This document shows, one piece after another, positions 45,880 to 58,151 of a stretch of 64,000 bases of DNA. The DNA is from Spirochaetota bacterium (GTDB lineage Bacteria; Spirochaetota; UBA4802; UBA5550): positions 928,001 to 992,000 of the forward strand of contig OY760686.1 in the NCBI GenBank assembly GCA_963663865.1, given 5' to 3'. Below the pieces are notes generated by a model. That model had not been told where the DNA came from. It saw nothing but the letters and a program-made list of their open reading frames with translations, and did no database searches. Within the stretch, counting starts at the first letter, position 1; each line of letters opens with the position of its first letter. The position numbers were made by a program, and so were the translations under genes.

Positions 45880-47175
45880 TTAATCTTCAAACCTGACGTT
45901 TATTGACCCGCCATGCTTGTCGTCAAAGCCCTCGGCTCCGGACATTATATTTACAGGCCCCCGCGCTTCTGAGAGCGCTTCTCGGTTCAGAAGCTGAAAG
46001 GTGGTCCTTCGGATGAAGGTGTCCACCGACGTGCCAGAGCTGAATCTGGCCGCGCCTCCCGTGGGCAGTATGTGGTTTGTTCCCGAGTAGTAGTCGCCGA
46101 CTGAAACCGGAGAATGGTCTCCAAGAAAGAGAGAGCCTACATTCCTTATTCTGTTAAGATATGCCATTGGATTTTTCACGGCGAATTCCATGTGCTCAGG
46201 GGCGTACCTGTTGGAGAACTCAATAGCTGATTCTACGTCAGGCATAACAATGATATCGGAACGCGTAAGGGCCTTCTTTTTTATTTCATGTCTGCCTGCA
46301 CCGGACTCAATATCCTTGATGATTTCTGCCTTTACGGCTTCAGCTTCGCGGATGTCTGTGGTGAGCAGAACAGCGGTTGCCATTTCCTCGTGCTCTGCCT
46401 GTGAAAGCAGGTCCCAGGCAATCCATTTTGGATCGGCTGATCCGTCGGATATTATCAGAACTTCGGAAGGTCCGGCAAGTGAATCAATCTGGATAAGGCC
46501 CAGGCTGAAAAGATATGTCTTTGCCGCTGTGACGTAGATGTTGCCCGGCCCCACTATAATATCCGATGCCGGAATAGTCTCCGTGCCCAGGCCTGCCGCG
46601 GCGATTCCCTGAGCGCCTCCGCTTTTAAGGACACGCGTGACACCGAGCATTTTACAGACCGCGCAGATAATATCAGGAACCATGCCGTCTTTGCCCGGAG
46701 GTGTGATTACGGTGATGTCTTCTGTTCCCGCGATTTTTGCAGGTATAACGCCCATCATCACGGATGAAGGGTAGGATGCCTTTCCTCCGGGAACATATAC
46801 GGCGGCCCGCTCAATGGCCTCGTACTTGACTCCGAGAGTTATTCCGTTTCTGTCGTACTGGATATCTTCCCTCTTTTGTCTTAAGTGGAATTCCTCGATG
46901 TTTTTTGCGGCCGCCGAGAAGGCTGACAGCAGTTCGCCGGGTGTGTTTTGAAAGCCCTTTTCAATTTCATCTGGCGTTGCAGTTATTGAGCTGATATCTA
47001 CACCGTCAAAGCGTGATGTGTACTTTTTTACCGCGCTGTCTCCGTTGCTCTTCACGTCCTGAACGATGGGGGCTACTGTATCTATCATGATTGAGCTGAA
47101 ATCGGTGCCGAAGCGGTTGAACAGACGGTCAAGGTCTGTTTTGTCAAGCTCAGTGTATTTTCTTATTTTGATCAT
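45880..47175 (-). CDS. hisD: Histidinol dehydrogenase
   Basis: YVPGGKASYPSS, GPGNIYV, AGPSE, DLLSQAEH, APEH, GDY.SGTNHILPT. Confidence 0.97.
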   Translation of the reverse strand: MIKIRKYTELDKTDLDRLFNRFGTDFSSIMIDTVAPIVQDVKSNGDSAVKKYTSRFDGVDISSITATPDEIEKGFQNTPGELLSAFSAAAKNIEEFHLRQKREDIQYDRNGITLGVKYEAIERAAVYVPGGKASYPSSVMMGVIPAKIAGTEDITVITPPGKDGMVPDIICAVCKMLGVTRVLKSGGAQGIAAAGLGTETIPASDIIVGPGNIYVTAAKTYLFSLGLIQIDSLAGPSEVLIISDGSADPKWIAWDLLSQAEHEEMATAVLLTTDIREAEAVKAEIIKDIESGAGRHEIKKKALTRSDIIVMPDVESAIEFSNRYAPEHMEFAVKNPMAYLNRIRNVGSLFLGDHSPVSVGDYYSGTNHILPTGGAARFSSGTSVDTFIRRTTFQLLNREALSEARGPVNIMSGAEGFDDKHGGSINVRFED

Positions 47176-47389
47176 AAGGCGCCTCCGATATGTCAGAAAA
47201 ATTCTGTTTAACTTTGATATCCGTCAAGTAGTTTTATTTTGTGTTTGCCGCCCGGCGGGGCGACACGCTTTTTGGCAGGGAGCCTGTTCGTCTGTTTTGG
47301 TACTTTGTTTATTCGGGACGGTCTCGACCGTCCCCTACCTCTGTTTATTATGCGAAGCGCACGTGCTTTTCATTTGCCGCTATGTTGCG

Positions 47390-47666
47390 TGATACACATT
47401 TTTGGAAGGGAGCCTGCATCCATTTTCATGCTGAGAGCGTGGTACTTATTTTGCCGCTTTTTGACCGGCCAAAAAGCGGCGGTAAAAAGCCGTTCCTCAG
47501 GCGCCGGAAAGGCTTAGCTTTTGAAGTTACTCGACCATTGCAGCGCCGTTATCATCATCCTGATGAAACGGCGCCCGGGCGATTTTCATCCGTGAAAATC
47601 GCACTGGTTGAGGTGTTGAAGTAGTGTGCCTGCAGTTTCTTAATTCCGCCATTATGTTCCTGGCGA
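47390..47666. repeat. Structured multi-hairpin repeat, left copy (a partial copy also at 47260-47286)
   Basis: Colinear diverged direct repeat of 54710-54985; several hairpins. Confidence 0.9.
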
Positions 47667-47811
47667 CGCATCGTAGTCGGCCGCGGAAAAGGGGCGAGTC
47701 TGTCTGAGTCTGCCGGTAGGCAGAGGAGTTACGAGCCCTCCGCAGATGACAAGATCAAGAAAGTTTGTTGCTAATACCAGAAAAGAAATACACACTTGCA
47801 TAAAGAGAAAA

Positions 47812-47837
47812 CGTAACCTATGTCCTGAAACTGGACA
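47812..47837 (+). mobile_element. Probable IS481-family terminal inverted-repeat remnant
   Basis: CGTAACCTATGTCCTGAAACTGGACA, ending ACA, resembles IS481-type right ends. Confidence 0.4.
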
Positions 47838-47890
47838 AATTAAATATTGTTTTATTAACAATTTATATCAATAATCACAGGAAAAAAATA

Positions 47891-48619
47891 ATGCGTTTTG
47901 TTACTTATGTTATTTTTATAATACTGGCTATTACATTTATACTTTGCATTACTTCAAATGAAGCAATGAGTCAAAATAATATAAACTATGAAATTGGTAC
48001 CGAATGTGAAGTGCCAACTTTAATTCAATATGGAAATATTATACCGGGATTATTCAGCAATACATTGTATTTAGGTATTTCAAAGAATAGAGAAGATTCT
48101 TCTTCGCATGTATTTATGTTAACTTTTAATACTATGATTTATGAACTTGCAAATGTGAGGACAGAATTCGGATCAAGCAGAGACTGGTCTACTGCTGGAT
48201 TTGGTTGGACACCTGCTAATCTTTATTCGTGCGGATATGTTCTCACTGGACATAAATTAGAAAATAGTATAGTCATATTTTCTCCCGGGTTAGGTTATTC
48301 ATATAGCTTTAAAATTTATCAATTTTTTGAAATTTCATTGGGAATAAATTTTGGGATTTCATATGGTTGTGTAGATAAGCCGGAACTGAAAATTTCAGAA
48401 GATGAAGCTGTTGATAATTACAATAATCGATTAAGAGGATATGAGAAAATGAATGGAGTTAATAATCATTATGGATTCAGGAATAATGAAAAAATAAAAA
48501 TTTCATTTATAACAAACTCAATAAGATTGGGTATTAGCATTGGTTATTCTCATTATGTTTTCAGCCAAAATAATTTCAATTCATATGATATTGGGACTTT
48601 TTATTCAATAGTTTTTTAG
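47891..48619 (+). CDS. AT-rich secreted protein, probable outer-membrane beta-barrel
   Basis: Signal peptide; alternating aromatic beta strands (PGLGYSYSF, ISIGYSHY); C-terminal Phe. Confidence 0.6.
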   Translation: MRFVTYVIFIILAITFILCITSNEAMSQNNINYEIGTECEVPTLIQYGNIIPGLFSNTLYLGISKNREDSSSHVFMLTFNTMIYELANVRTEFGSSRDWSTAGFGWTPANLYSCGYVLTGHKLENSIVIFSPGLGYSYSFKIYQFFEISLGINFGISYGCVDKPELKISEDEAVDNYNNRLRGYEKMNGVNNHYGFRNNEKIKISFITNSIRLGISIGYSHYVFSQNNFNSYDIGTFYSIVF

Positions 48620-48624
48620 TTTAA

Positions 48625-49239
48625 GGGCGGTTTGAAAAACTCAAGAATTAATTGCCAAAATGATTGGGCTAATTTAATGCTGTAATAATTAAATCTGAGT
48701 TTGAGCGAGAATAGACCATGTCAAAACACCGATCACTATTTGAATACGAAGAAAGGATGAATAAGCTGTCAGCGATAGGTGACCCCCTGGAAAAGTTGAA
48801 TGTATTTATTCCATGGGAAGAGATATTTTCTGGAGCTATGGCTAAGATAATTAAGTCAGCCGCCAAAGGTCCAGGCGGTCGTCCTGCGTATAGTTGTGAG
48901 ATGATGCTTAAAGTTCTTATTCTTCAACGTGTGTATAATCTGTCAGATGAGCAGGTTGAATTTCAGGTTAATGATCGTTTGTCATTTCAGAGATTTTTAG
49001 GCTTGGATATCAGTTCTTCCGTGCCAGACTACTCAACGATCTGGAAGTTTAGAGAAAAACTTGTTCACACAAATGCGATAGAAGAGATTTTTAGAAAGTT
49101 GATCAAATATATTGAGAAGCAGGGAATTGTGATGAAGAGCGGATCAATTGTTGACGCGACTTTTGTTGAGGTACCCCGGCAGAGGAATAGCCGTGAAGAC
49201 AACGAAAAGATAAAGAATGACGAGATACCATCTGACTGG
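48625..49239 (+). mobile_element. IS5-family element, left part only
   Basis: TTAA followed by the IR-like GGGCGGTTTGAAAAACT, then the transposase 5' half; cut by the IS3 element. Confidence 0.8.
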
Positions 49240-49242
49240 TGA
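48718..49242 (+). pseudogene. IS5-family transposase, truncated
   Basis: GGRPAY, LQRVYNLSD.QVE..DRLSF.RFLGL, PDYSTIW.FRE, IVDAT; ends at the IS3 left end. Confidence 0.92.
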
Positions 49243-49309
49243 ACCTACCCCGAAAAAGTGGACACGAAGTTAGGCGAATTTAACGATAATAAACTTAACG
49301 GAGAAACCC

Positions 49310-49612
49310 ATGACTAACAGAAGAACGTATGATCGTCAATTCAAAATTGATGCAGTAAAATTACTGAAAGAGAGCGGCAAAACAGCTTCTGCGGTCGCCG
49401 ATAATCTGGGGATTAAATCTGATCTCTTGTCACGCTGGAAAAAGGAATTTGCCAATGAAACCAAAAAAGTTTTTCCAGGGAAAGGAAATCCGCGAGATGA
49501 AGAAATAACACGTTTGAAAAAAGAGAACGCAGATCTTCGTATGGAGCGTGATATATTAAAAAAAGCAATGGCCATCTTTTCACAACCCGAAAGGAGAAAT
49601 TCGAATTCATGA
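49310..49612 (+). CDS. IS3 transposase OrfA
   Basis: RRTYDRQFKIDAV HTH; LKKENADLRMERDILKKAMAIF zipper. Confidence 0.93.
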   Translation: MTNRRTYDRQFKIDAVKLLKESGKTASAVADNLGIKSDLLSRWKKEFANETKKVFPGKGNPRDEEITRLKKENADLRMERDILKKAMAIFSQPERRNSNS

Positions 49613-50469
49613 AAAACAATGAATCGATTTATCCGGTGAAGAAGATGGCTGAAACATTTAGAATACCCAGAAGTCAATATTACAAATGGCTGAATTCAAA
49701 ACCTTGCTCTCGTGAGCTTCGAGATCAGGAATTACTTGTTATAATCAAAAAGAGTCATGAAGAAAGCAGAGAAACATACGGCAGCCCCAGGATCTTTAAA
49801 GATATTAAGAAGAAGTGAATCAAAACCTCAAAGAAACGAGTAGCTCGACTCATGCAAAGGAACGATCTTAAAGGTGCACAAAAACGCAAATTTAAGGTTA
49901 CTACCAATTCAGTTCATGAATATCCAGTGGCACCAAACCTTCTCAATAGGCAGTTTGATGTGCAGCAACCCAACACCTATTGGGTAAGCGATATCACCTA
50001 TATATGGACGATGGAAGGATGGCTGTATCTATCTGTTATAATTGACCTGTTCTCTCGAATGATTGTCGGATGGGCAATGGAGTCTCATATGCGGGCAGAG
50101 TTGGTAATTGATTCATTAAATATGGCTGTCACTCATCGCAATCCTGATGATGGATTAATATTCCATTCTGATCGGGGAACTCAATATGCCTGTGATGATT
50201 TTCGAACAGCACTTAAAGGATACGAGATGATTCAAAGCATGAGCCGGAAAGGTAACTGCTGGGACAATGCATGTGCTGAAAGCTTTTTTGCAACATTAAA
50301 GACTGAAGAAGTTTATCGTAGAAAATATAAAACCAGAGAGGAAGCAAGGTCTTACATATTTGAATATATAGCTGTTTTTTATAACAGAAAAAGACAGCAT
50401 TATTTTCTTGACTGTTTAAATCCTGTGGAATATGAAATAAATATGCTCAAACTTAAAAATGTTGTTTAA
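49609..50469 (+). pseudogene. IS3 transposase OrfB with in-frame TGA at 49816-49818
   Basis: YGSPRI, WVSDITYI, FHSDRG.QY, CWDNACAESFF DDE core; the two ORF pieces are in frame. Confidence 0.9.
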
Positions 50470-50499
50470 CTATCTGTCCTATAAATCGGGGGAGCTTCA

Positions 50500-51113
50500 T
50501 TTTTACACTGAGGGTGTGAGACCTTTTTTCGTTATTTTTTTTTCGATCCAAAAAGGGGTGTTGCCGAAGGCTTTTGCAAAGCTGTACTTTGCTATACTCA
50601 TTTTCACAGGGAGCCTGTGTGCATTTTCTGTTACTTTCTTTTTTCGATCCAAAAAAGAAAGTAACCAAAGAAAAAGGGATCTCCTGCGCGGAGGGCGATG
50701 GGACATCCATGTCCAAAGAATTAGTCACTGTGAATTAATCCATAGAGTGATAGCTTTATTATGTCAGGCGCCTTCGGAGCCGGAAGGCGCAGCATCCTGC
50801 TGCGCTTGAGTTATTATACATTTTGTCATATTACATAATCATATTGATTTAATCGTCATTAGGTTTCGCCACCCTGTAGAGCCGGCCAATTTGGACGGCT
50901 CTACCTCGCTACGCCCCCCCACCGCGGATGACAAGATGAGGAGAGCCGAAGGTCGGAACATTGGCGGCAGATTTCTTTTGACCACTTTTCTTGCTAAAAG
51001 AAAAGGAGTGAGGAAACTCTGACGAAAAGGCCTAAGCCCCCTCCTGGGCGGCTTAGGCACTAGTTCATCCTGAACGTCGGCGCCAGGGCGATTTGCTTCC
51101 ATGCAAATCGCAC
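50500..51113. repeat. Cluster of structured repeat modules, internal copies
   Basis: T-tract/hairpin/A-tract units at 50510-50535, 50630-50675 and 50970-51010; hairpins with TCC-containing loops at 50701-14, 50787-805, 51030-58, 51063-75 and 51088-111. Confidence 0.8.
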
Positions 51114-51208
51114 CTTTTCATCTTCTGTTTCGGAATCGGGTATTTTAGTAAAACGTACGGCATCGGGGAAAATTAAAAAAAATTGAATCAGATTAAAAAA
51201 AGTAAAAG

Positions 51209-51268
51209 AACGAAGGATAACGAATACATAACGAACATATAACGAAAATATAACGAACAAAAAACGAA
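51209..51268. repeat. Six AACGAA motifs phased at 10-11 bp
   Basis: AACGAA at 51209, 51219, 51230, 51241, 51252 and 51263. Confidence 0.9.
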
Positions 51269-51415
51269 GGGAAATAGGGCTGTTGAGGGGCTGAAACGCC
51301 CGGAAATGAGCTCTTCGAGCGAAAATCTGGCGGGGAAAGTACAACGTCAGCAATGAAGGGATAGGTTTTTGGGAAGGAGTGGGGTATGTTGCAGGGCGGA
51401 GTTTCTTTTTTTACA

Positions 51416-51565
51416 GGTGGCTTTATGTATCGAAGTTCAATATCTTTATACAAAGCCCATTTTAAAATTTTATCACTGATGTATTCAGGGGCATTATCGG
51501 AACGTATACTTCCAGGTTTTCCACGCAAGACTATGACATGCTCAAGAGATGTTAGTACCCGATGA
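51416..51565 (-). pseudogene. IS3-family transposase (integrase core) fragment
   Basis: RVLTSLEHVIVLRGKPGSIRSDNAPEYIS..LKWA....IELRYIKP. Confidence 0.75.
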
Positions 51566-51772
51566 TAAAGTCATGGTGAGGAAACTGTGAAAACCTCAAT
51601 GAATTATTTAGCTTATCCGGCAGATATTCTAAAGCAATTTATACAACCAGCAATTAAACGAAATTTTTATGCAGTTTATTTTACTTTTTTCAGAATATTA
51701 ATGAATATAGTTTGATTTTTATATGTGTTACCTTCAACGATATTGGATGAAGTTTTTGTGCAGAGAAGGATA

Positions 51773-51779
51773 GTTAGGC
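51773..51779 (+). other. Integron recombination core site (GTTAGGC) starting cassette 1; possible attI
   Basis: GTTRRRY; 51773-51793 is the reverse complement (20/21) of 53327-53347 at the cassette end. Confidence 0.7.
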
Positions 51780-51820
51780 GCAATATTTCACATGCGACAT
51801 TATTGAAATAGAATAAAACG

Positions 51821-53323
51821 ATGAATACATTAGCATTTTTAAGAAATACATCTGGGAAAATAGATCCATTTCGATTTCCAGCAAAAATTGGGGAACTAGC
51901 CCAATTGCTTCTGCTTTATGATAATATTACTATTGTTACTGACAATTTAAACGAATTAACATGCATAATAGAATGGCTTGGAGAGGATGCATTCAATCGC
52001 TTATTACTAAACAAGACAATTAAAATAATATTGATCCCATGGGAATATGCTACTTTTAACCCAAACCAAGATAATAATTCTATTAACATAGGATTATACA
52101 AGCTATTATCAGAAAATATTGATTTAAATTTAGAAAATCTTAATGATAGAAATGAATATTTACATAAAATAATAATAAGAAATATTTTTCAATCTCCATC
52201 ATCCAGTATCTCACCAGATACAATTACAAATATTGCAAATAAATTAGATATTGTTCAATCATCTGATTTTTGTAAATTATTAAATAATAATTCTCATCAA
52301 ATGTTTACTTGGCTCTTCAGCATGAAAGAAACAAGCGACATTCAAGAATATTTTGATCATAATTTTCTATTAACTAAAGCAACTAATTATAGTTCATTTA
52401 ATTCATTGGAAATTAATGAAGAAATTATTACAGAAATTGAATATGACTATATAAAAAAATATTTATCTGGAGATTTAAATAATTTATTATATACTGTAAG
52501 GGAAATATCTATTGCATCATATCTTGATATTGGACATATCAATATATCTGATTTTACACCTTTATTAATGCAAAACATGGTTCATGACAATAAATCAGAT
52601 GTTATATCTCCATTTTTCAATAATATTTTAAATGTTCATGAATTCCCTTTGATTCATGCAGGTATATATAATAAAAGCATTAGTGCTGAAAATGTTTTAG
52701 CAATTAGAAATTCAAAATCTGGTGTCAATTTTAGAAAATGGCTAAGTGAATGTTCATCAACAAATAAAAATCCTGATCAATTAATATCAGAATATGTAAA
52801 ATCAATAACAGACCAAATACCGAAGGAATCTACTAAATTTTCAGTATTTAAACTACTGTCATTAGCATTATTAGGTATTGTCGATTCGGGTTCTGGTTTA
52901 GTACTTTCAATTGCTGATGTATTTCACACAAAAATTAAAAATACTTGGTCCCCAATATTATTTATAAGGGATGATTATGGTAAATTTCTTAATCAAACTT
53001 CATATGACTATCCATCTATACCGATAGATATTTTATTCTTATTGAATTGTGGATTAAGAATATGCAGTTTTGAATATCATGAAGATAATACTAAAATTGA
53101 ATTGTTCAGAGATACTAAAGATAATTTATTCAATATTACTTATGGTAAAAGTAAAGAGGAAATATCGATCTTAAAATCAACTATTCATGAAATTATTGAA
53201 TTGTCTCCTGGAGTAGAATTTTATTTTTATTGTCCATCATGTAACAGTAAAAATCAAATTAAATCCTTAGGAAAACAAACACAAAATATTCGGTGTGGTT
53301 ATTGTAAAAATAAAATTGTGTAA
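51821..53323 (+). CDS. Integron cassette gene: unknown 500-aa protein with C-terminal zinc ribbon
   Basis: Very AT-rich ORF between a core site and attC; CPSC...CGYC. Confidence 0.8.
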   Translation: MNTLAFLRNTSGKIDPFRFPAKIGELAQLLLLYDNITIVTDNLNELTCIIEWLGEDAFNRLLLNKTIKIILIPWEYATFNPNQDNNSINIGLYKLLSENIDLNLENLNDRNEYLHKIIIRNIFQSPSSSISPDTITNIANKLDIVQSSDFCKLLNNNSHQMFTWLFSMKETSDIQEYFDHNFLLTKATNYSSFNSLEINEEIITEIEYDYIKKYLSGDLNNLLYTVREISIASYLDIGHINISDFTPLLMQNMVHDNKSDVISPFFNNILNVHEFPLIHAGIYNKSISAENVLAIRNSKSGVNFRKWLSECSSTNKNPDQLISEYVKSITDQIPKESTKFSVFKLLSLALLGIVDSGSGLVLSIADVFHTKIKNTWSPILFIRDDYGKFLNQTSYDYPSIPIDILFLLNCGLRICSFEYHEDNTKIELFRDTKDNLFNITYGKSKEEISILKSTIHEIIELSPGVEFYFYCPSCNSKNQIKSLGKQTQNIRCGYCKNKIV

Positions 53324-53340
53324 AAAATGTGAAATACTGC

Positions 53341-53443
53341 GCCTAACAAAGCATATAAGCTGCGTCGCTTCGCTCCTTGGCCTGCGGCACATTTTGCCTT
53401 CATTTCATTACGGCAAAACGTCTTATATGCTTGGACGTTAAGT
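53341..53443 (+). other. attC site 1
   Basis: GCCTAAC...GTTAAGT; perfect inner stem AAGCATATAAG (53349-59)/CTTATATGCTT (53422-32). Confidence 0.88.
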
Positions 53444-53485
53444 GGCATTGCGAGTTAGTTATCTATTTATTAGGAGTTTGTTATA

Positions 53486-54163
53486 ATGAATACAACTCAA
53501 ATAATTATTGAATTCATTAAAACTATATTTTCTGCGGCAACACTAATTATTGCCATATATGGAATAAATACATGGCGCAAACAGTTGAAAGGCACAAATG
53601 AATTTGAACTCTCAAAGGAAATATTGGAAAATGTTTATAAAGTAAAAAGAGCTTTTGCTTATGTAAGAAACCCTGGAATTTATAAATCTGAATATCCAAA
53701 GGAACTCCAAGATAAATTAACTTTAAATATTGAACAAAAAGCTTATGCAACACAGTACTATTATAGTAAACGATTAGAAATACTTCATAATGAGTTTGAA
53801 AAACTTGAAAATTCATTTTTAAAAGGAATTGTATTGTTTAATATAACTGATGAGATTATTATGCCTTTACGGAAATGCAGAGCATCATTAATAGTTGCAT
53901 TGCAAGATCTTTACGAGTTTACTAAGAATCCTGAATATACAACTTCCGAAAGAAAACATGATGTTTATAAAATCATATATGATAATTTAAGCTTAAATGA
54001 AGATGATAAAGATCAGTTCTCAAAATATATAATAGAAGCAGTTGATTTGATGATTCATTGGTTAAAGCCGATGTTGTTAAAGTCAAAAATCAATAATAAA
54101 GAATTTCAAAATATTCTTAGGAGAACAAGAAGCTTTGAAATTATAATTCACAACGACGTATAA
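53486..54163 (+). CDS. Integron cassette gene: N-terminal TM helix protein of unknown function
   Basis: AT-rich; TAGGAG RBS; TM segment followed by WRKQLKG..EFELSKEIL; stop codon lies inside the attC R'' site. Confidence 0.8.
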   Translation: MNTTQIIIEFIKTIFSAATLIIAIYGINTWRKQLKGTNEFELSKEILENVYKVKRAFAYVRNPGIYKSEYPKELQDKLTLNIEQKAYATQYYYSKRLEILHNEFEKLENSFLKGIVLFNITDEIIMPLRKCRASLIVALQDLYEFTKNPEYTTSERKHDVYKIIYDNLSLNEDDKDQFSKYIIEAVDLMIHWLKPMLLKSKINNKEFQNILRRTRSFEIIIHNDV

Positions 54164-54233
54164 CTGCGGCTAAAAGCTACACTCCGGTTCCGGTTTGCTT
54201 CGAAAAAACGTCATTTAGCCGCGTTCGTTGTAC
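54158..54233 (+). other. attC site 2
   Basis: GTATAAC...GTTGTAC; inner stem GCGGCTAAA (54166-74)/TTTAGCCGC (54214-22); R' deviates from GTTRRRY. Confidence 0.75.
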
Positions 54234-54399
54234 GAAAGGCAGAGCGCCAGGACAGTGAAGAGAAAATGAGTTGAGGATAAATATATTTCTTAACACCGCC
54301 TCACAAGAGCGAGCCAAGTCCACTTCGACAGGCTCAGTACCCTCTGTATTTCATAGCTTTCTCCTGAATATTTTAGGCGACAGCTATGTTGACACAGAG

Positions 54400-54985
54400 G
54401 TGTTGCCGTAGGCTTTAACTCGCTCAGCTGTGCAACACGCTTTTTGGCAGGGAGCCTGCCGACCATTTTCACACTGGGAGTGTGGCACTTCTTTTGCCGC
54501 TTTTTGACCGGGCAAAAAGAGGCGGGAAAAAGCCGTTCCTCAGTCGCCGGAAAGGCGGAGTTTCCGCGGGTTTTTGTTCAGCTGCGCTGCGCGACTCGCA
54601 TTTTTGGCAGGGAGCCTGCCTGTCATTTTCACGCTGAGAGCGTGAGACCCTTTTTCTTCGTCACTTTCGTCCGGGTTTTTTGCCGTAGGCTTTAACTCGC
54701 TCAGCTGAGCGACACGCATTTAGGCAGGGAGCCTGCCGTCCTTTTTCACACTGGGAGTGTGGCACTTCTTTTGCCGCTTTTTGACCGGCCAAAAAGCGGC
54801 GGGAAAAAGCCGTTCCTCAGTCGCCGGAATGGCTTGGCCTTTACTGTTACCAAACTATTTCAACGCCGTTATCATCATCCTGATGAAACGGCGCCCTGGA
54901 GATTTTCATCCATGAAAATCTCACTGATTGAGTTGTTGAAACAGTGTGCCTGCAGTCTCTTAATTCCGGCATTATGTTCCTGGCG
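54400..54985. repeat. Three tandem structured repeat modules; the last is the full right copy of the island-flanking repeat
   Basis: GGCAGGGAGCCTGC cores near 54445, 54606 and 54723; TGCCGTAGGCTTTAACTCGCTCAGCTG occurs twice; 54710-54985 matches 47390-47666. Confidence 0.9.
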
Positions 54986-55022
54986 GCTATTTCGACCTCC
55001 TGTCGGCCGTCGGCCCTCTGTG

Positions 55023-58000
55023 TCAACATTCTCTCTCCCTCTTTTCCCAGAACTCATAGAGAATCGGCATGATAAAAAGGGTGAGCAATGTTGAAGTAGT
55101 TATTCCGCCGACAACAACCACGGCAAGCGGCTTCTGTACCTCTGAACCTATACCTGTGGCAAGCATCATCGGCAGAAAGCCGAAGATGTCAGTCAGCGCG
55201 GTCATCAGAACAGCACGGATCCTCATACTTGCCCCTTCTCTGATCAGTGCAGGTCCATGAAGACCGTCACGCCGCAGAGAGTTATAGCAGCTGATAAGCA
55301 CAATGCCGTTCAGGACGGCAATGCCCGATACAGCGATAAAGCCTATTCCGGCTGAGATGCTGAAAGGAAGCCCCATTATCGCCAGATTTATTACTCCGCC
55401 GGCTATGGCGAAGGGTACTCCCAGGAATATTATGAGTGACTGCTGTGTGTTTTTGAAAACGGAATAGATAAGCATGAAAATCAGAATCATCGCTACCGGC
55501 GCTGCAACAGCGAGACGCTTTCCGGCTTTGCTGTAGTTCTGAAAGAAACCCTTCCAGCGTGTAAAATAACCATCGGGCAGATGAAGTTTTTCGTTGAGAA
55601 GCTTCTTTGCTTCTTCGACGAAGCTCTGAGTGTCCCTTTCACCGCTCATGTTGATGAGAACCCCGGCGCGCCGTCTGGACTGTTCCCTGTTAACCTGGAT
55701 ATAAATATCATCAATAGTGAGCTTTGCGACATCAGAAAGAGGGACGGTAAAGTTTTCAGAAACTCCAACTGGTATCGTACCAATGGCGGCAATGTTGTTA
55801 CGGTAGCGGTCAGGAAGTCGTATTTCTATCGGAAATTTCCTGTCCTGATGATAGATGTGCCCTGCCTCGGCCCCGCCGAGGGCTATTCGTACAGTCTCAA
55901 GAACATTTCTTTTTTCAATACCCAGCCTGTTTATCACATCCATGCGGGGCGTAATTTTAAGGAGGGGCGTTTTACCGTTAATTGAGGTCTGCACTGAAGC
56001 CGCACCTGGTAGCGACCTGAGAAGTTCAGCCGCATCCTCTGCAATGTGTTCAAGCTCTTCAAGATCGGAGCCGTAAACGAGCAGTGTGATGTCTGAGTCA
56101 AATCCTTCGATAAGATGATTGAAGCGCATTTGAACCGGCTGGGACATCATGGCCTCCTGGCCTGGCACTGCCTTTCGCAGCTTTTCACTGATTGCATTTT
56201 TTAATTCTTCGAATGTCCTGCGTTTCCCGTTTATAAGAGGCCATTTCTCGACAGGTTTTAGGGTGATAATGCAATCTACATGATCAACTCCAACCGGATC
56301 TGTTGATATCTCAGAGGCGCCAAGTCTCGAAAAAACATCACGGACTTCATCGAATTCCATTATGGCCCTGTCGGAAATTTTCTGCATTTCAACCGACATG
56401 TCAGGTGAAATATTAACCGGACGGATCATTTTGGCCGCAAGGGTGCCTTCCGATAGATTGGGGATAAACTCAGCCCCCATCCTCGAAAAGATTAACGCGG
56501 ATGCTGCAATCGTAAGTATTGCCGTAAGAACAACCTTGAACCGATGCTTGAGGCAAAATTCCAGCGCGGGCATGTACAGCCTCCGGAAAGTCCGCATCAG
56601 AAACGGCTCGCGCAGGTCCGGTTTACCGGAGAGAAATCTTCCGGCGAGGGCCGGTACAACGGTGAAGCTTAATACGAAGGATGAGGCCAGCGCGAAGCAG
56701 AAGCCTGTAGCCATGGGAGAGAACATCTTGCCTTCAATGCCGGTCAGCATGAAGAGCGGGATGAATACGATAATGATAATCAGCTGGCCCAATCCTGCCG
56801 CGCCCCTGATGTTGACTGCTGATTCCCCGACGGTCTCTCTGATCTCAGCTCTTGAAAGAGAGCGTCCCTTCGCGCGTGCCCGCTCCGAGATGCTTCTCGC
56901 GCAGCTGTCCATTACGATGACTGCCCCGTCTATAACAATGCCGAAGTCGATGGCGCCGAGGCTCATAAGGCTGCCGGGAATATTGAACAACTTCATCAGA
57001 ATGAAAGTACCCAGCAGGGAGAGAGGCACAACAAAGGCAGTGATGAGGGCAGCCCTGAAGTTGCCGACAAGCAGAAACAGAAATACTATGACAAGTCCGG
57101 CGCCCATGAGGATGTTCTTTTTTACGGTTTCAAGGGTGCTGTTGACCAGATCAGATCTGCTGTACAGCACATCTATCTCTGTGCCGGCGGGCAGGTTTTT
57201 CTTTATCTCATTAATCTCTTTCGTCACGTTATCGGAAACAGTCCTGCTGTTTTCTCCCTGGAGCATCATGACCGTACCGATTATTGATTCCTCGGCATTG
57301 TGCACAGCTGCTCCGGTCCGCAGCTCTTTTCCGTAATCAACCGTTGCTATGTCTCCAACGGTAATAGTTCTGAAGTTCTGAAGCATCTTAACGGGGATTT
57401 GCCTGATGTCTTCCGGGGATGTATATATCCCCCTTCCCTGAACGAGCAGCTGCTCTGCTGACTGTTGGATGTATCCGCCGGCGGAGTTGTATGAGTTGTC
57501 TTCAACTGCCCGCAAAATGTCGTCAAAGTGAATGCCGTAATGAGATGTCAGTGACGGGTCTGGAGTGACGTGGTACTGACGGGGATATCCCCCGATGGTA
57601 TTTACTTCATTTACTCCCTTGACGCTCATCAACCTGGGGATAATCTCCCATCGGTGAAGTGTGTCAAGTTCCTGAAGCAGGTCCAGTTTTTTCCGTTCGC
57701 TGTCAGGAGACTCCCTTACTCTGAGAGTGTAGTAGACTATCTCGCCGAGGCCGGTCGATATGGGCCCCAGTTCAGGAGACACAGTTTCAGGAAGATCAAC
57801 AGATTGAAGCTGTTCTGAAACCAGCTGGTGCGCCATGTAAATATCGGTCCCATCCTCAAATACAACAGTTACCTGGGAAATGCCGTATCTTGTTACTGAA
57901 CGGACTTCCTCCATTCCTGGAATGGAGTTCATGGCGCTTTCAATAGGGTAGGTGATGTTTGACTCAATTACATCGGGTGTCTGTCCCGCAGCTGCGGTAT

Positions 58001-58151
58001 TTACTGTGACCTGAACATTCGTAATGTCGGGGATGGCATCTATCGGCAATGTTGAGAAAGCCGTTATTCCTGCAGCGGCCAGGAGTATGGTGAACAGAGC
58101 CGGATAAAGAACATTGTCGGTCGATTTTTTTATTATAGTATCAAGAAACAT
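55023..58151 (-). CDS. czcA: CusA/CzcA-family heavy-metal efflux RND permease
   Basis: LPIDAIPDITNVQV, GPISTGLGEI, MSLGAIDFG..IDGA, GIEGKMFSPMA, GFIAVSGIAVLNG. Confidence 0.95.
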   Translation of the reverse strand: MFLDTIIKKSTDNVLYPALFTILLAAAGITAFSTLPIDAIPDITNVQVTVNTAAAGQTPDVIESNITYPIESAMNSIPGMEEVRSVTRYGISQVTVVFEDGTDIYMAHQLVSEQLQSVDLPETVSPELGPISTGLGEIVYYTLRVRESPDSERKKLDLLQELDTLHRWEIIPRLMSVKGVNEVNTIGGYPRQYHVTPDPSLTSHYGIHFDDILRAVEDNSYNSAGGYIQQSAEQLLVQGRGIYTSPEDIRQIPVKMLQNFRTITVGDIATVDYGKELRTGAAVHNAEESIIGTVMMLQGENSRTVSDNVTKEINEIKKNLPAGTEIDVLYSRSDLVNSTLETVKKNILMGAGLVIVFLFLLVGNFRAALITAFVVPLSLLGTFILMKLFNIPGSLMSLGAIDFGIVIDGAVIVMDSCARSISERARAKGRSLSRAEIRETVGESAVNIRGAAGLGQLIIIIVFIPLFMLTGIEGKMFSPMATGFCFALASSFVLSFTVVPALAGRFLSGKPDLREPFLMRTFRRLYMPALEFCLKHRFKVVLTAILTIAASALIFSRMGAEFIPNLSEGTLAAKMIRPVNISPDMSVEMQKISDRAIMEFDEVRDVFSRLGASEISTDPVGVDHVDCIITLKPVEKWPLINGKRRTFEELKNAISEKLRKAVPGQEAMMSQPVQMRFNHLIEGFDSDITLLVYGSDLEELEHIAEDAAELLRSLPGAASVQTSINGKTPLLKITPRMDVINRLGIEKRNVLETVRIALGGAEAGHIYHQDRKFPIEIRLPDRYRNNIAAIGTIPVGVSENFTVPLSDVAKLTIDDIYIQVNREQSRRRAGVLINMSGERDTQSFVEEAKKLLNEKLHLPDGYFTRWKGFFQNYSKAGKRLAVAAPVAMILIFMLIYSVFKNTQQSLIIFLGVPFAIAGGVINLAIMGLPFSISAGIGFIAVSGIAVLNGIVLISCYNSLRRDGLHGPALIREGASMRIRAVLMTALTDIFGFLPMMLATGIGSEVQKPLAVVVVGGITTSTLLTLFIMPILYEFWEKREREC

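Follow-up and report, generated by a model that had tools for sequence, protein, structure and literature searches.

Mosaic intergenic boundary repeats of a spirochaete carry GGA-tipped hairpins that may bind CsrA

Introduction

Between about 47.5 and 54.9 kb of the window (the whole stretch of 64,000 nucleotides analysed here) the intergenic DNA carries hairpins which, read on the minus strand, display GGA at their tips. The question raised by this locus is whether such hairpins work as RNA, and on which strand, or as a repeat at the level of DNA. A preliminary description had proposed a multicopy, modular, possibly mobile structured element that titrates the regulator CsrA. In bacteria possessing FliW, control of CsrA is ascribed to this protein partner, and the principal target known for CsrA is flagellin mRNA. 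Decoys of CsrA made of RNA are known mainly from proteobacteria.

Results

Composition of the element family

The hairpins belong to composite intergenic boundary elements made of strand-specific modules, with a left part, a hairpin D and a right part. The three double hairpins of the preliminary description were located in the sequence where it had placed them. They are two modules, F and G, of a larger intergenic element, about 300 nt long, that is modular and rich in hairpins (Table 1). A profile search of the genome with nhmmer gave 77 matches at approximately 14 loci, of which some 15 span the full length, and the alignment of 15 copies gave the module order A-H, in which the palindromic hairpin D is central between the left part (A-B-C) and the right part and all modules within an element are co-oriented. 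Truncation is frequent, and the make-up of many copies is mosaic: modules are exchanged for alternative ones, and copies break off at the apex of D. Module K, which has 10 genomic copies, joins mosaic arrays together with other GGA-tipped modules, and module J, a GC-rich palindrome starting with GTAG, recurs behind many copies. One hairpin G has a group II intron inserted in its apex.

The multicopy, modular and structured character is thus borne out, while mobility is not, given that the element lacks terminal inverted repeats and a linked transposase and that its copies are 75-94% alike, which gives no sign of recent spread. Repeat analysis found no inverted repeat joining the two ends of the element. 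The element was rejected as a MITE, as the aligned ends differ and are without a common flanking duplication, and an Rfam search returned nothing at the gathering threshold. With no Rfam family, REP/RAYT or MITE match found, the earlier view that this is not a described family is supported.

Table 1. Features of the element arrays, their cargo and the flanking core genes (window coordinates)
Feature	Position	Strand	Basis and details
Core flank: histidinol dehydrogenase	45880..47175	-	Pfam
Degenerate partial copy, left modules A/B	47247..47295	+	nhmmer, profile 17-65; direct repeat D4
Full element copy 1, modules A-H	47373..47671	+	nhmmer 337 bits, profile 14-313; 15-copy alignment; sequence
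Copy 1 hairpins C, D, E	47426-47442, 47453-47480, 47488-47514		
Copy 1 hairpins F, G	47543-47574, 47579-47602		tail H ends 47671
Cargo ORF, 242 aa	47891..48619	+	GC 0.29; no Pfam family
Cargo: IS5-like DUF772 transposase fragment, then IS3-family element	48718..50469	+	Pfam (HTH_Tnp_1, HTH_21, rve)
Partial A/B-like module and 18-bp-arm palindrome (50630-50665)	50591..50665	+	repeats D4, I9
Module K	50666..50835	-	on minus strand, in order: -10-like TATAAT, CAGGAUG (50787-50805), AUGGAUG (50701-50714), covarying hairpin and U-run
Module J	50876..50904	+	GC-rich palindrome starting GTAG
Three-hairpin group	51030..51111	+	nhmmer, profile 197-246; sequence
First hairpin of group	51030-51058		minus-strand tip CAGGAG
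F-like hairpin of group	51063-51075		tip CAGGAUG
G-like hairpin of group	51088-51111		tip AUGGAAG
rve-type transposase remnant	51193..51528	-	weak Pfam match, E 0.0067
Cargo ORF, 500 aa	51821..53323	+	GC 0.25; no family above cut-off
Canonical-looking attC-like site with RYYYAAC/GTTRRRY boxes	53341-53437		inside cargo, separate from the element
Cargo ORF, 225 aa	53486..54163	+	GC 0.27; no family above cut-off
Partial element, modules A-E	54404..54556	+	nhmmer, profile 2-155, 150 bits
Partial element, A-C and 5' half of hairpin D (variant 2)	54572..54672	+	nhmmer, profile 11-112; breaks at D apex
Full element copy 2	54681..54991	+	nhmmer 344 bits
Copy 2 hairpins B, C, D, E	54723-54737, 54746-54762, 54773-54800, 54808-54834		
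Copy 2 hairpins F, G	54863-54894, 54899-54922		tail H ends 54991
Putative minus-strand unit H'-G'-F'-E'	54785..54992	-	two GGA-tipped hairpins, E' (-11 to -12 kcal/mol), UUUUU
Core flank: AcrB-family transporter, convergent on copy 2	55023..58151	-	Pfam

Covariation of the stems and conservation of the loops

The compensatory stem changes described earlier were recovered in a set of 21 genomic copies of F and G, drawn from 26 motif matches; the five left out were one chance match, one copy interrupted by the intron, one with a deletion and two with another module after F. In this alignment 95.0% of cells pair (27-42% in slid controls), and both sides have changed in 5 of 24 pairs (18 cells), a level reached by none of 500 shuffles, although this count is not a probability because the copies are related. 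The hairpin of module C, for which the forms CACACT and CACGCT had been noted, also covaries (AT 21, GC 22, other 5; n=48). The loop core TCC, GGA on the opposite strand, is found in 20/21 F loops and 19/21 G loops; in the latter the base beside the core varies (CATCC, CCTCC, CTTCC, CGTCC) around the fixed TCC/GGA. The apex CATCC(N)TG is common to at least seven unrelated stems. It is enriched in the genome as a whole, being borne by 86 hairpins, against 6-29 for eight control cores, and 63 of the 86 lie at most 600 nt from element matches; seven strict-apex hairpins fall within 47.5-54.9 kb. The minus-strand tips read as the preliminary description gave them, including both tips of module K and that of the first hairpin of the three-hairpin group, and the GGA loops are conserved in other genera too.

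These data bear on the idea that the copies are decaying selfish or junk repeats without present function. The many truncated and mosaic copies and the failure to find an associated enzyme would fit such an idea, which we nevertheless judge to be quite improbable, as compensatory changes maintain the stems and both the apex motif and the module order are conserved across genera despite differing stems.

Strand of the putative RNA

On the minus strand the GGA hairpins, with tips CA(N)GGAUG, are followed by hairpin E', which folds at -11 to -12 kcal/mol, and directly thereafter by five U residues. The variable N of the loops sits where the A(N)GGA motif permits variation. In helix F1, 18 pairs wobble on the minus strand only, compared to 2 on the plus strand. 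Summed over all helices, wobble pairs number 63 for the plus strand versus 39 for the minus strand, with B and C leaning to plus; folding is similar on both strands (z -3.85 and -5.27), and module K folds no better than shuffles (z -0.47). A sigma-70-like promoter with a usable -35 box was not found upstream of H', and a -10-like box precedes module K in only 5 of the 10 copies. In the window, the putative H'-G'-F'-E' unit lies 32 nt past the stop codon of the convergent acrB-like gene.

The opposite assignment, in which the plus strand is the working RNA and provides the co-oriented upstream gene with a long 3' UTR or an array of terminators, has several observations on its side. The left part A-B-C, with terminator-like hairpins that precede T-runs, begins approximately 0-60 nt from the stop codon of that gene at 11 junctions, so that the 5' end of the element abuts the stop codons of co-oriented genes, all of the terminator-like sites at 47200-55100 (19/19) are on the plus strand, and the wobble pairs of B and C favour it. 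The UCC loops would then have a stabilising role, or would base-pair with other mRNAs at their GGA loops or ribosome-binding sites, the flagellin leader hairpins being an example, and the G variant apex CATCCTTG, present in two copies, is the exact complement of the flagellin-leader loop. However, the T-runs after B and C begin 4-5 nt from the stem, which makes them weak terminators that would halt transcription before F and G, the mismatches of helix F1 would be A-C on this strand, and no role is given to the conserved A-run 5' of E. We judge a working plus-strand RNA to be quite unlikely.

The proposed link of the minus strand to CsrA comes from the genome itself, where csrA is present, as the preliminary proposal demanded, and adjoins fliW. 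Three of the refuting conditions set by that proposal were examined, namely a missing csrA, GGA loops lost in further copies and a match to a known repeat family, and none of them spoke against CsrA. Two flagellin leaders of this genome have hairpins of the form CA-N-GGA-UG, with CA/UG closure and an AGGA loop, situated 19 and 44 nt 5' of the start codon, with a GGAGGA ribosome-binding site behind them. For Treponema denticola, a published study reports CsrA sites close to the ribosome-binding sites of flaB (PMC9481697). The leader hairpins of the present organism probably bind CsrA as well. The minus-strand hairpins of the element have the same GGA-tipped form, so the element may soak up CsrA. 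The PrrB/RsmZ family was the only bacterial small RNA model of Rfam to recur, matching both full copies on the minus strand with 18.0 and 16.5 bits, far below its gathering score of 44.

Orientation, cargo and relatives

The orientation of the element equals the direction of replication in 73 of 77 matches, and two of the four exceptions come from hairpin D, a palindrome, read in reverse. Of the genes, only 60% are on the leading strand. Most neighbouring genes are opposite in strand to the GGA-hairpin side. The arrays bracket low-GC cargo, comprising type I restriction-modification with OLD/UvrD genes, RHS toxins, toxin-antitoxin pairs and insertion sequences, and such bracketing is seen in relatives as well. 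Replication polarity and the bracketing of cargo point to a DNA-level side that was absent from the preliminary description.

Among 61 genomes of the family, csrA is present in 58, as compared to 24 for the core module of hairpins D and E, which is patchily distributed across 17 genera or more. The surroundings of 44 D-E matches in relatives show TCC-apex hairpins 32 times downstream and on the same strand as the match, 6 times downstream but on the other strand, and 4 times upstream. The apex motif and the module order are kept across genera and the stems differ. At least four As match the E' U-run in 43 of 47 matches from relatives, a count that is partly circular because the search model includes the run. 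In the relative G016, the hairpins and E' come 110-230 nt after toxin-antitoxin genes of minus sense. The polarity of the element relative to local GC skew is mixed in relatives (17 agree, 19 disagree).

A serious rival is that the element is a DNA-only repeat in the manner of REP/BIME, the neisserial NIME or the pneumococcal BOX, with a merely coincidental likeness to CsrA sites. A protein of the host or of a mobile element would recognise the hairpins as DNA, either in duplex form or as single strands at the fork, and the hairpins would serve as portable homology or recombination sites for gain and loss of accessory cassettes. The polarity of the 73 matches against 60% of genes, the bracketed low-GC cargo here and in relatives, the mosaic make-up with alternative modules and breaks at the D apex, the intron in one hairpin G apex and the patchy distribution among genomes all favour it. 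On the other side are the failure to find a RAYT/Y1 transposase or an integron integrase, the lack of terminal inverted repeats, copies that are 75-94% alike with no sign of recent spread, and the mixed polarity in relatives; this reading also leaves unexplained why nothing in the loops but their GGA/TCC core is fixed, and the conserved A/U-run beside E. We regard it as possible yet somewhat doubtful.

Another reading would be an attC-like site for cassette recombination, belonging to an integron-like system spread over many loci whose recombinase has escaped identification. Here and in relatives, cassettes are separated by direct repeats at a spacing of 1.2-3 kb, hairpin E retains an unpaired G (G-G, G-A or bulge), and orientation is uniform relative to replication, as it is in chromosomal integrons. 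Against this, the best pieces matching the integron integrase model TIGR02249 reach 114 and 95 bits versus a cut-off of 265, a sub-threshold level of match also shown by all 14 control genomes; GTTRRRY/RYYYAAC boxes are absent from the element ends, the arrays share no common recombinase and the element is three times the typical attC length. We consider an attC-like function very improbable.

Discussion

The reading that we prefer, with a probability of about 0.4, is that of a boundary or terminator repeat whose putative minus-strand unit binds CsrA. The stop-codon abutment of the left part and the plus-strand position of all 19 terminator-like sites also count in its favour. The unit would be transcribed from its own promoter or by transcripts of a convergent gene, in the window the acrB-like one, of which it would form the 3' end, and its GGA hairpins would bind CsrA as decoys in competition with the look-alike flagellin leader hairpins. 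The element would thereby have two roles, as a CsrA-binding RNA and as a device that insulates inserted genes or terminates transcription in both directions. Replication polarity and patchy distribution count against the CsrA reading, being unexplained by a role as RNA.

The proposed unit bears similarities to CsrB/CsrC and RsmX/Y/Z in having several GGA loops followed on the same strand by a terminator-like hairpin and a U-run in a genome with csrA, and both full copies match the RsmZ model weakly over its full length. Membership in the CsrB/Rsm families of Rfam was rejected, since scores of 16-18 bits against a gathering score of 44 do not make the element a member. It also differs in having only 2-3 GGA motifs per unit, tens of copies embedded in mosaics instead of one to three dedicated genes, no recognisable promoter, and a host with the FliW-type CsrA system. 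A FliW-type system in Campylobacter is described as working without antagonising small RNAs (PMC4894983), and our literature search found no description of a sponge RNA in spirochaetes. CsrA-binding hairpins are also known from flagellin mRNA leaders (Bacillus hag, Borrelia and Treponema flaB). The flaB leaders of this organism share the C-G and A-U closure and the (N)GGA loop with the element hairpins, which differ in lying outside 5' leaders and opposite in strand to most neighbouring genes.

Among DNA repeats, pneumococcal BOX elements form modular arrays with a variable number of inner modules beside variable genes, and a part in recombination has been suggested for them. The same arrangement, near variable genes and with a proposed aid to recombination, is described for NIME (PMC3184786). 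According to the same review, REP/BIME occur between genes in many copies, as imperfect palindromes of high GC content grouped into mosaic clusters, often between convergent genes and targeted by mobile elements (PMC3184786). The present element resembles NIME/dRS3 and BOX in its modular arrays, variable inner-module repeats and position beside variable genes, but has no sequence likeness to them, and differs in an apex carried on unrelated stems, a core module in at least 17 genera and a polar orientation. With REP/BIME it shares intergenic position, multicopy occurrence, GC-rich imperfect palindromes and mosaic clusters, and it differs by co-oriented rather than alternating modules, longer units, a conserved loop motif and an orientation that follows replication. 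RAYT (PF01797) had no match in the genome (98% complete, 1 contig), while 6 of 14 genomes gave a match in the control search; a RAYT-associated REP/BIME was rejected on the lack of this gene and of alternating orientation. The attC sites of integrons, such as the VCRs of Vibrio, are likewise structured direct repeats between small cassettes, many of them toxin-antitoxin, and have one hairpin with an unpaired base, whereas the element is without IntI or R/L boxes and its arrays are dispersed over about 14 loci.

It is tempting to speculate, and we do so tentatively, that the preferred reading would define, for spirochaetes of this family, a previously unseen class of CsrA decoy in which GGA-hairpin modules are carried in tens of copies on replication-polar mosaic boundary elements flanking horizontally acquired cassettes, and not in dedicated small RNA genes. 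Acquired DNA might then supply 3' ends that bind CsrA, or recruit them, and flagellin translation might be tuned by the number of such elements alongside FliW. It would be the first case of an RNA that antagonises CsrA in a system of the FliW type. If this is true, RNA titration occurs in spirochaetes as well, with a dose set by the repeat content and the adjoining accessory genes. Should the CsrA link fail, there is still a repeat whose orientation tracks the replication fork far beyond the strand bias of the genes, and whose core module marks, across those genera, the edges of defence, toxin and toxin-antitoxin cassettes.

Architecture and copy number

The three double hairpins of the preliminary description are present where it placed them and correspond to modules F and G within a larger intergenic element of about 300 nt, whose ordered modules A-H were defined in an alignment of 15 genomic copies (see the table). 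In the window, a 288-nt direct repeat, 83% identical between 47378-47665 and 54698-54985, brackets a stretch of low-GC accessory DNA (the cargo). The 3.16-Mb genome, a single contig, holds 77 profile matches, about 15 of them full length, distributed over some 14 loci and two isolated fragments, and together with the alignment these matches bear out the earlier view of a multicopy, modular and structured element. Tandem repetition is frequent for the left modules A-C, some repeats break at the apex of hairpin D, and further modules (I, J and K) occur 3' of H in varying combinations; the family is therefore a mosaic.

Two isolated module-K fragments (G000:C1:2372249-2372407 and 2636842-2637186, in the source genome) have the orientation opposite to all other copies. 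At one locus (L005) a group II intron (G000:C1:1038034-1040001) with a minus-strand RT ORF at 1038140-1039561 and a visible domain V interrupts a hairpin G at its apex, on the GGA-carrying strand. In the window, 3-4 tandem copies of an 11-nt unit of the ATAACGAA type occupy 51217-51260, in AT-rich sequence beyond the third hairpin unit.

Modules of the element and features of its surroundings (G000:C1, source genome)
Feature	Position	Description
Module A	leftmost	followed by hairpin B, then hairpin C
Hairpin D	after C	three stem versions, wholly different from each other
A-run and hairpin E	after D	constant unpaired G in E
Hairpin F	after E	long stem, TCC loop
Hairpin G	after F	
Tail H	after G	about 60 nt, conserved
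Flanks of the window array		histidinol dehydrogenase gene and AcrB-type gene, both minus strand
IS insertion	window 48718-50469	IS3-family element inside IS5-like DUF772 transposase gene
attC-like site	window 53341-53437, inside cargo	GCCTAAC box and GTTAAGT box, imperfect palindrome between
Defence island between two element arrays (L016)	G000:C1:2857469-2871862	HsdM, HsdS, HsdR
Genes between arrays (L004)	G000:C1:771587-778649	large RHS-repeat and SpvB/FG-GAP proteins
Genes between arrays (L007)	G000:C1:1178345-1185200	large RHS-repeat and SpvB/FG-GAP proteins
flaB leader hairpins	G000:C1:142832-142847, 2959542-2959563	AGGA loop

Covariation of stems and conservation of loops

Pair counts for hairpins F and G were made on 21 copies, five of the 26 motif matches having been dropped. 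The stems pair in 95% of cells, against 27-42% in a control with slid partners. Compensatory changes had been proposed for these stems, and changes on both sides are found at 5 of the 24 pairs, which 0 of 500 shuffles reach, a count that is not a probability since the copies are kin. The covariation suggested for a second hairpin, module C, is likewise seen, one pair alternating between A-T (21) and G-C (22), and in hairpin E one copy has CG/CG in place of TT/AA. The loops vary less than the stems: TCC (GGA on the minus strand) is kept in 20/21 F loops and 19/21 G loops with a variable neighbouring base, so that the loop conservation noticed at first extends to more copies. The apex CATCC(N)TG is formed by 86 hairpins genome-wide, compared with 6-29 for each of eight control cores; 63 of the 86 lie within 600 nt of element matches, and the apex is common to at least seven unrelated stems.

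Genomic setting and cargo

The copies in the window enclose 7.3 kb with a GC content of 22-41%, against about 50% in the backbone. This cargo comprises three family-less ORFs, an IS5-like fragment interrupted by an IS3 element (orfA then orfB, the latter broken by a stop near 49818), a transposase remnant and one attC-like site, the bottom strand of which folds at -18.7 kcal/mol (z -2.3). The 500-aa ORF is framed by the two arms (51773-51793/53327-53347) of a 21-nt inverted repeat starting GTTAGGC. Searches of the genome found neither an integron integrase nor a RAYT, and the impression that the element is not a described family agrees with the tests run, by which it belongs to no REP/RAYT, MITE, attC or Rfam family. 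A RAYT-like gene in a relative's genome (G046) was rejected as a partner: a different, GC-rich palindrome flanks it, so the gene is not linked to this repeat family. That gene, an interrupted Y1 transposase gene at L081 (G046:C201) 289-1650, is followed by what we take, by eye, to be the start of a Cas12a-like ORF.

Other loci enclose a type I restriction-modification system accompanied by OLD-family, UvrD-like and Schlafen-like genes; toxin genes of the RHS/SpvB type; ParE, RelB, HigB-like and DUF4160/DUF2442 pairs; a C10 peptidase together with its inhibitor; and IS66, IS110 and IS256-type elements. Besides its type I restriction-modification genes, the defence island at L016 has a Schlafen/AlbA_2 gene and a Gabija-like pair, formed by an OLD-family ATPase/TOPRIM gene and a UvrD-like helicase gene. 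At L004 and L007 small low-GC ORFs follow the RHS-repeat/SpvB/FG-GAP genes, and the gene sets look like polymorphic toxin and immunity sets.

Eleven junctions have the element's 5' end -7 to +61 nt from the stop codon of a core or cargo gene in the same orientation, and a convergent gene faces the array end in 9 of 14 arrays. Contigs of four runs were mapped (contigs only, likeness 90). In one contig set (X6) the flanks are covered to a depth of 40-53 with 4-5% differences, and the only contigs over the cargo (47.8-54.2 kb) have a depth of 6-17 and are identical to the window. Joints skip about 7.3-7.45 kb (47272>54723, one contig, side 55; 47345>54725; 47519>54844); one side of each is repeat sequence with a likeness below 95, indistinguishable from other element copies, and no empty site is deduced from them.

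Replication polarity

By GC skew, the replication origin is near 0.34 Mb and the terminus near 1.93 Mb, and 73 of the 77 matches have the element's plus sense on the leading-strand sequence; the four exceptions are two matches that read the palindromic hairpin D in reverse and two isolated fragments. Since the leading strand carries only 60% of the 2209 long ORFs, this polarity is not passive co-orientation. The apex hairpins obey the same rule (70/86), and where the heptamer occurs outside elements it more often has the opposite orientation. Among relatives, judged by local GC skew, 17 cases agree, 19 disagree and 4 are weak; by clade, the genus g17 has the same sense in 7/7 and the genome G002 in 0/5. 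The octamer GGGCAGGG has a leading-strand skew of 116:15 over the whole genome, resembling that of FtsK-orienting motifs, and GGCAGGG occurs within module B in the same (permissive) sense; both are too weak to account for the polarity, and such a motif was rejected as its cause.

Polarity and the bracketing of cargo are DNA-level traits. They count against a role in CsrA binding, for which the main rival is a repeat that acts at the DNA level only, like REP/BIME or NIME, and serves as a recombination scaffold, an explanation we consider somewhat less probable than CsrA binding.

Distribution in relatives

The presence of FlaA sheath genes identifies the organism as a spirochaete. The whole element was found nowhere else by 20-mer scans with a profile check or by BLAST against 41 genomes. 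A 20-mer from the core of F occurs at 12 places in genome contigs, 11 in metagenome contigs and 0 in viral contigs, in none of which the profile finds the element, although these collections may lack records close to the source genome, and BLAST with the 311-nt element against the 41 genomes gives only pieces of at most 66 nt, all from the core module D-E, in 8 relatives. A covariance model of D-E has matches in 24 of 61 family genomes (17/25 genera), with 1-9 per relative, and BLAST finds D-E in two further families of the order. In relatives it again divides small cassettes, with MqsA-like, DUF4160/DUF2442, PIN and HicA genes and RHS pieces. In the surroundings of 44 such D-E matches, TCC-apex hairpins occur 32 times downstream on the strand of the match, 6 times downstream on the other strand and 4 times upstream, always with different stems. 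Because they recur at the same place with different stems, the module order and the apex are older than the sequences. A DUF4160/DUF2442 cassette present here and in the relative G016 was dismissed as a recent transfer, the proteins being about 50% identical and DNA being shared only in D-E.

Possible binding of CsrA

The single csrA gene, whose presence the preliminary description had left to be confirmed, lies beside fliW. On the minus strand the element reads, in conserved order, GGA-tipped hairpins, hairpin E' (-11 to -12 kcal/mol) and a U-run. The run has at least 4 residues in 43/47 matches from relatives, a count that is partly circular because the model was trained with the run included. 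Precisely this unit follows minus-sense toxin-antitoxin genes in G016, and in the window copy 2 starts 32 nt past the stop codon of the AcrB-type gene that converges on it.

The most telling result for CsrA comes from the flagellin genes. Two of the five flaB leaders have hairpins, at distances of 19 and 44 nt from the start codon, with long stems closed by CA/UG around an AGGA loop and followed by a GGAGGA ribosome-binding site, the same form as the minus-strand element tips. These two hairpins are likely CsrA sites of the organism, as predicted from their form; in Treponema denticola, CsrA sites near flaB ribosome-binding sites are reported (PMC9481697). A permissive scan for GGA hairpins before genes gave 194 matches, mostly within genes, and is uninformative beyond the two flaB leaders.

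The minus strand of each full copy matches the RsmZ model weakly over its full length, at 16-18 bits where the gathering score is 44, and in helix F1 the pairs that are wobbles on one strand alone number 18 for the minus strand and 2 for the plus strand. Over the whole element the wobble test is mixed (63 plus vs 39 minus), modules B and C favouring the plus strand, and it counts against the CsrA reading, as do fold energies, which do not separate the strands. Apex hairpins offer too few wobble pairs (1 plus vs 3 minus in the own genome, 1 vs 0 in relatives). The promoter scan, also counted against it, found 33 sites where 28.5 were expected, none convincing and none conserved in the element; a -10-like box precedes module K in 5/10 copies. 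So, too, was the occurrence of csrA in 58/61 genomes against a patchy element, a profile made uninformative by that very ubiquity.

In a limited literature search, neither such a repeat family nor a CsrA-binding sRNA was found described in spirochaetes. Tentatively, with a probability of about 0.4 and judging from sequence features, we suggest that the minus strand is transcribed across this unit and that the RNA binds CsrA. We read the element as a composite boundary unit of three parts, in which terminator-like hairpins on the plus strand follow the upstream gene, a palindromic spacer comes next, and a unit of GGA hairpins on the minus strand ends in a putative terminator.
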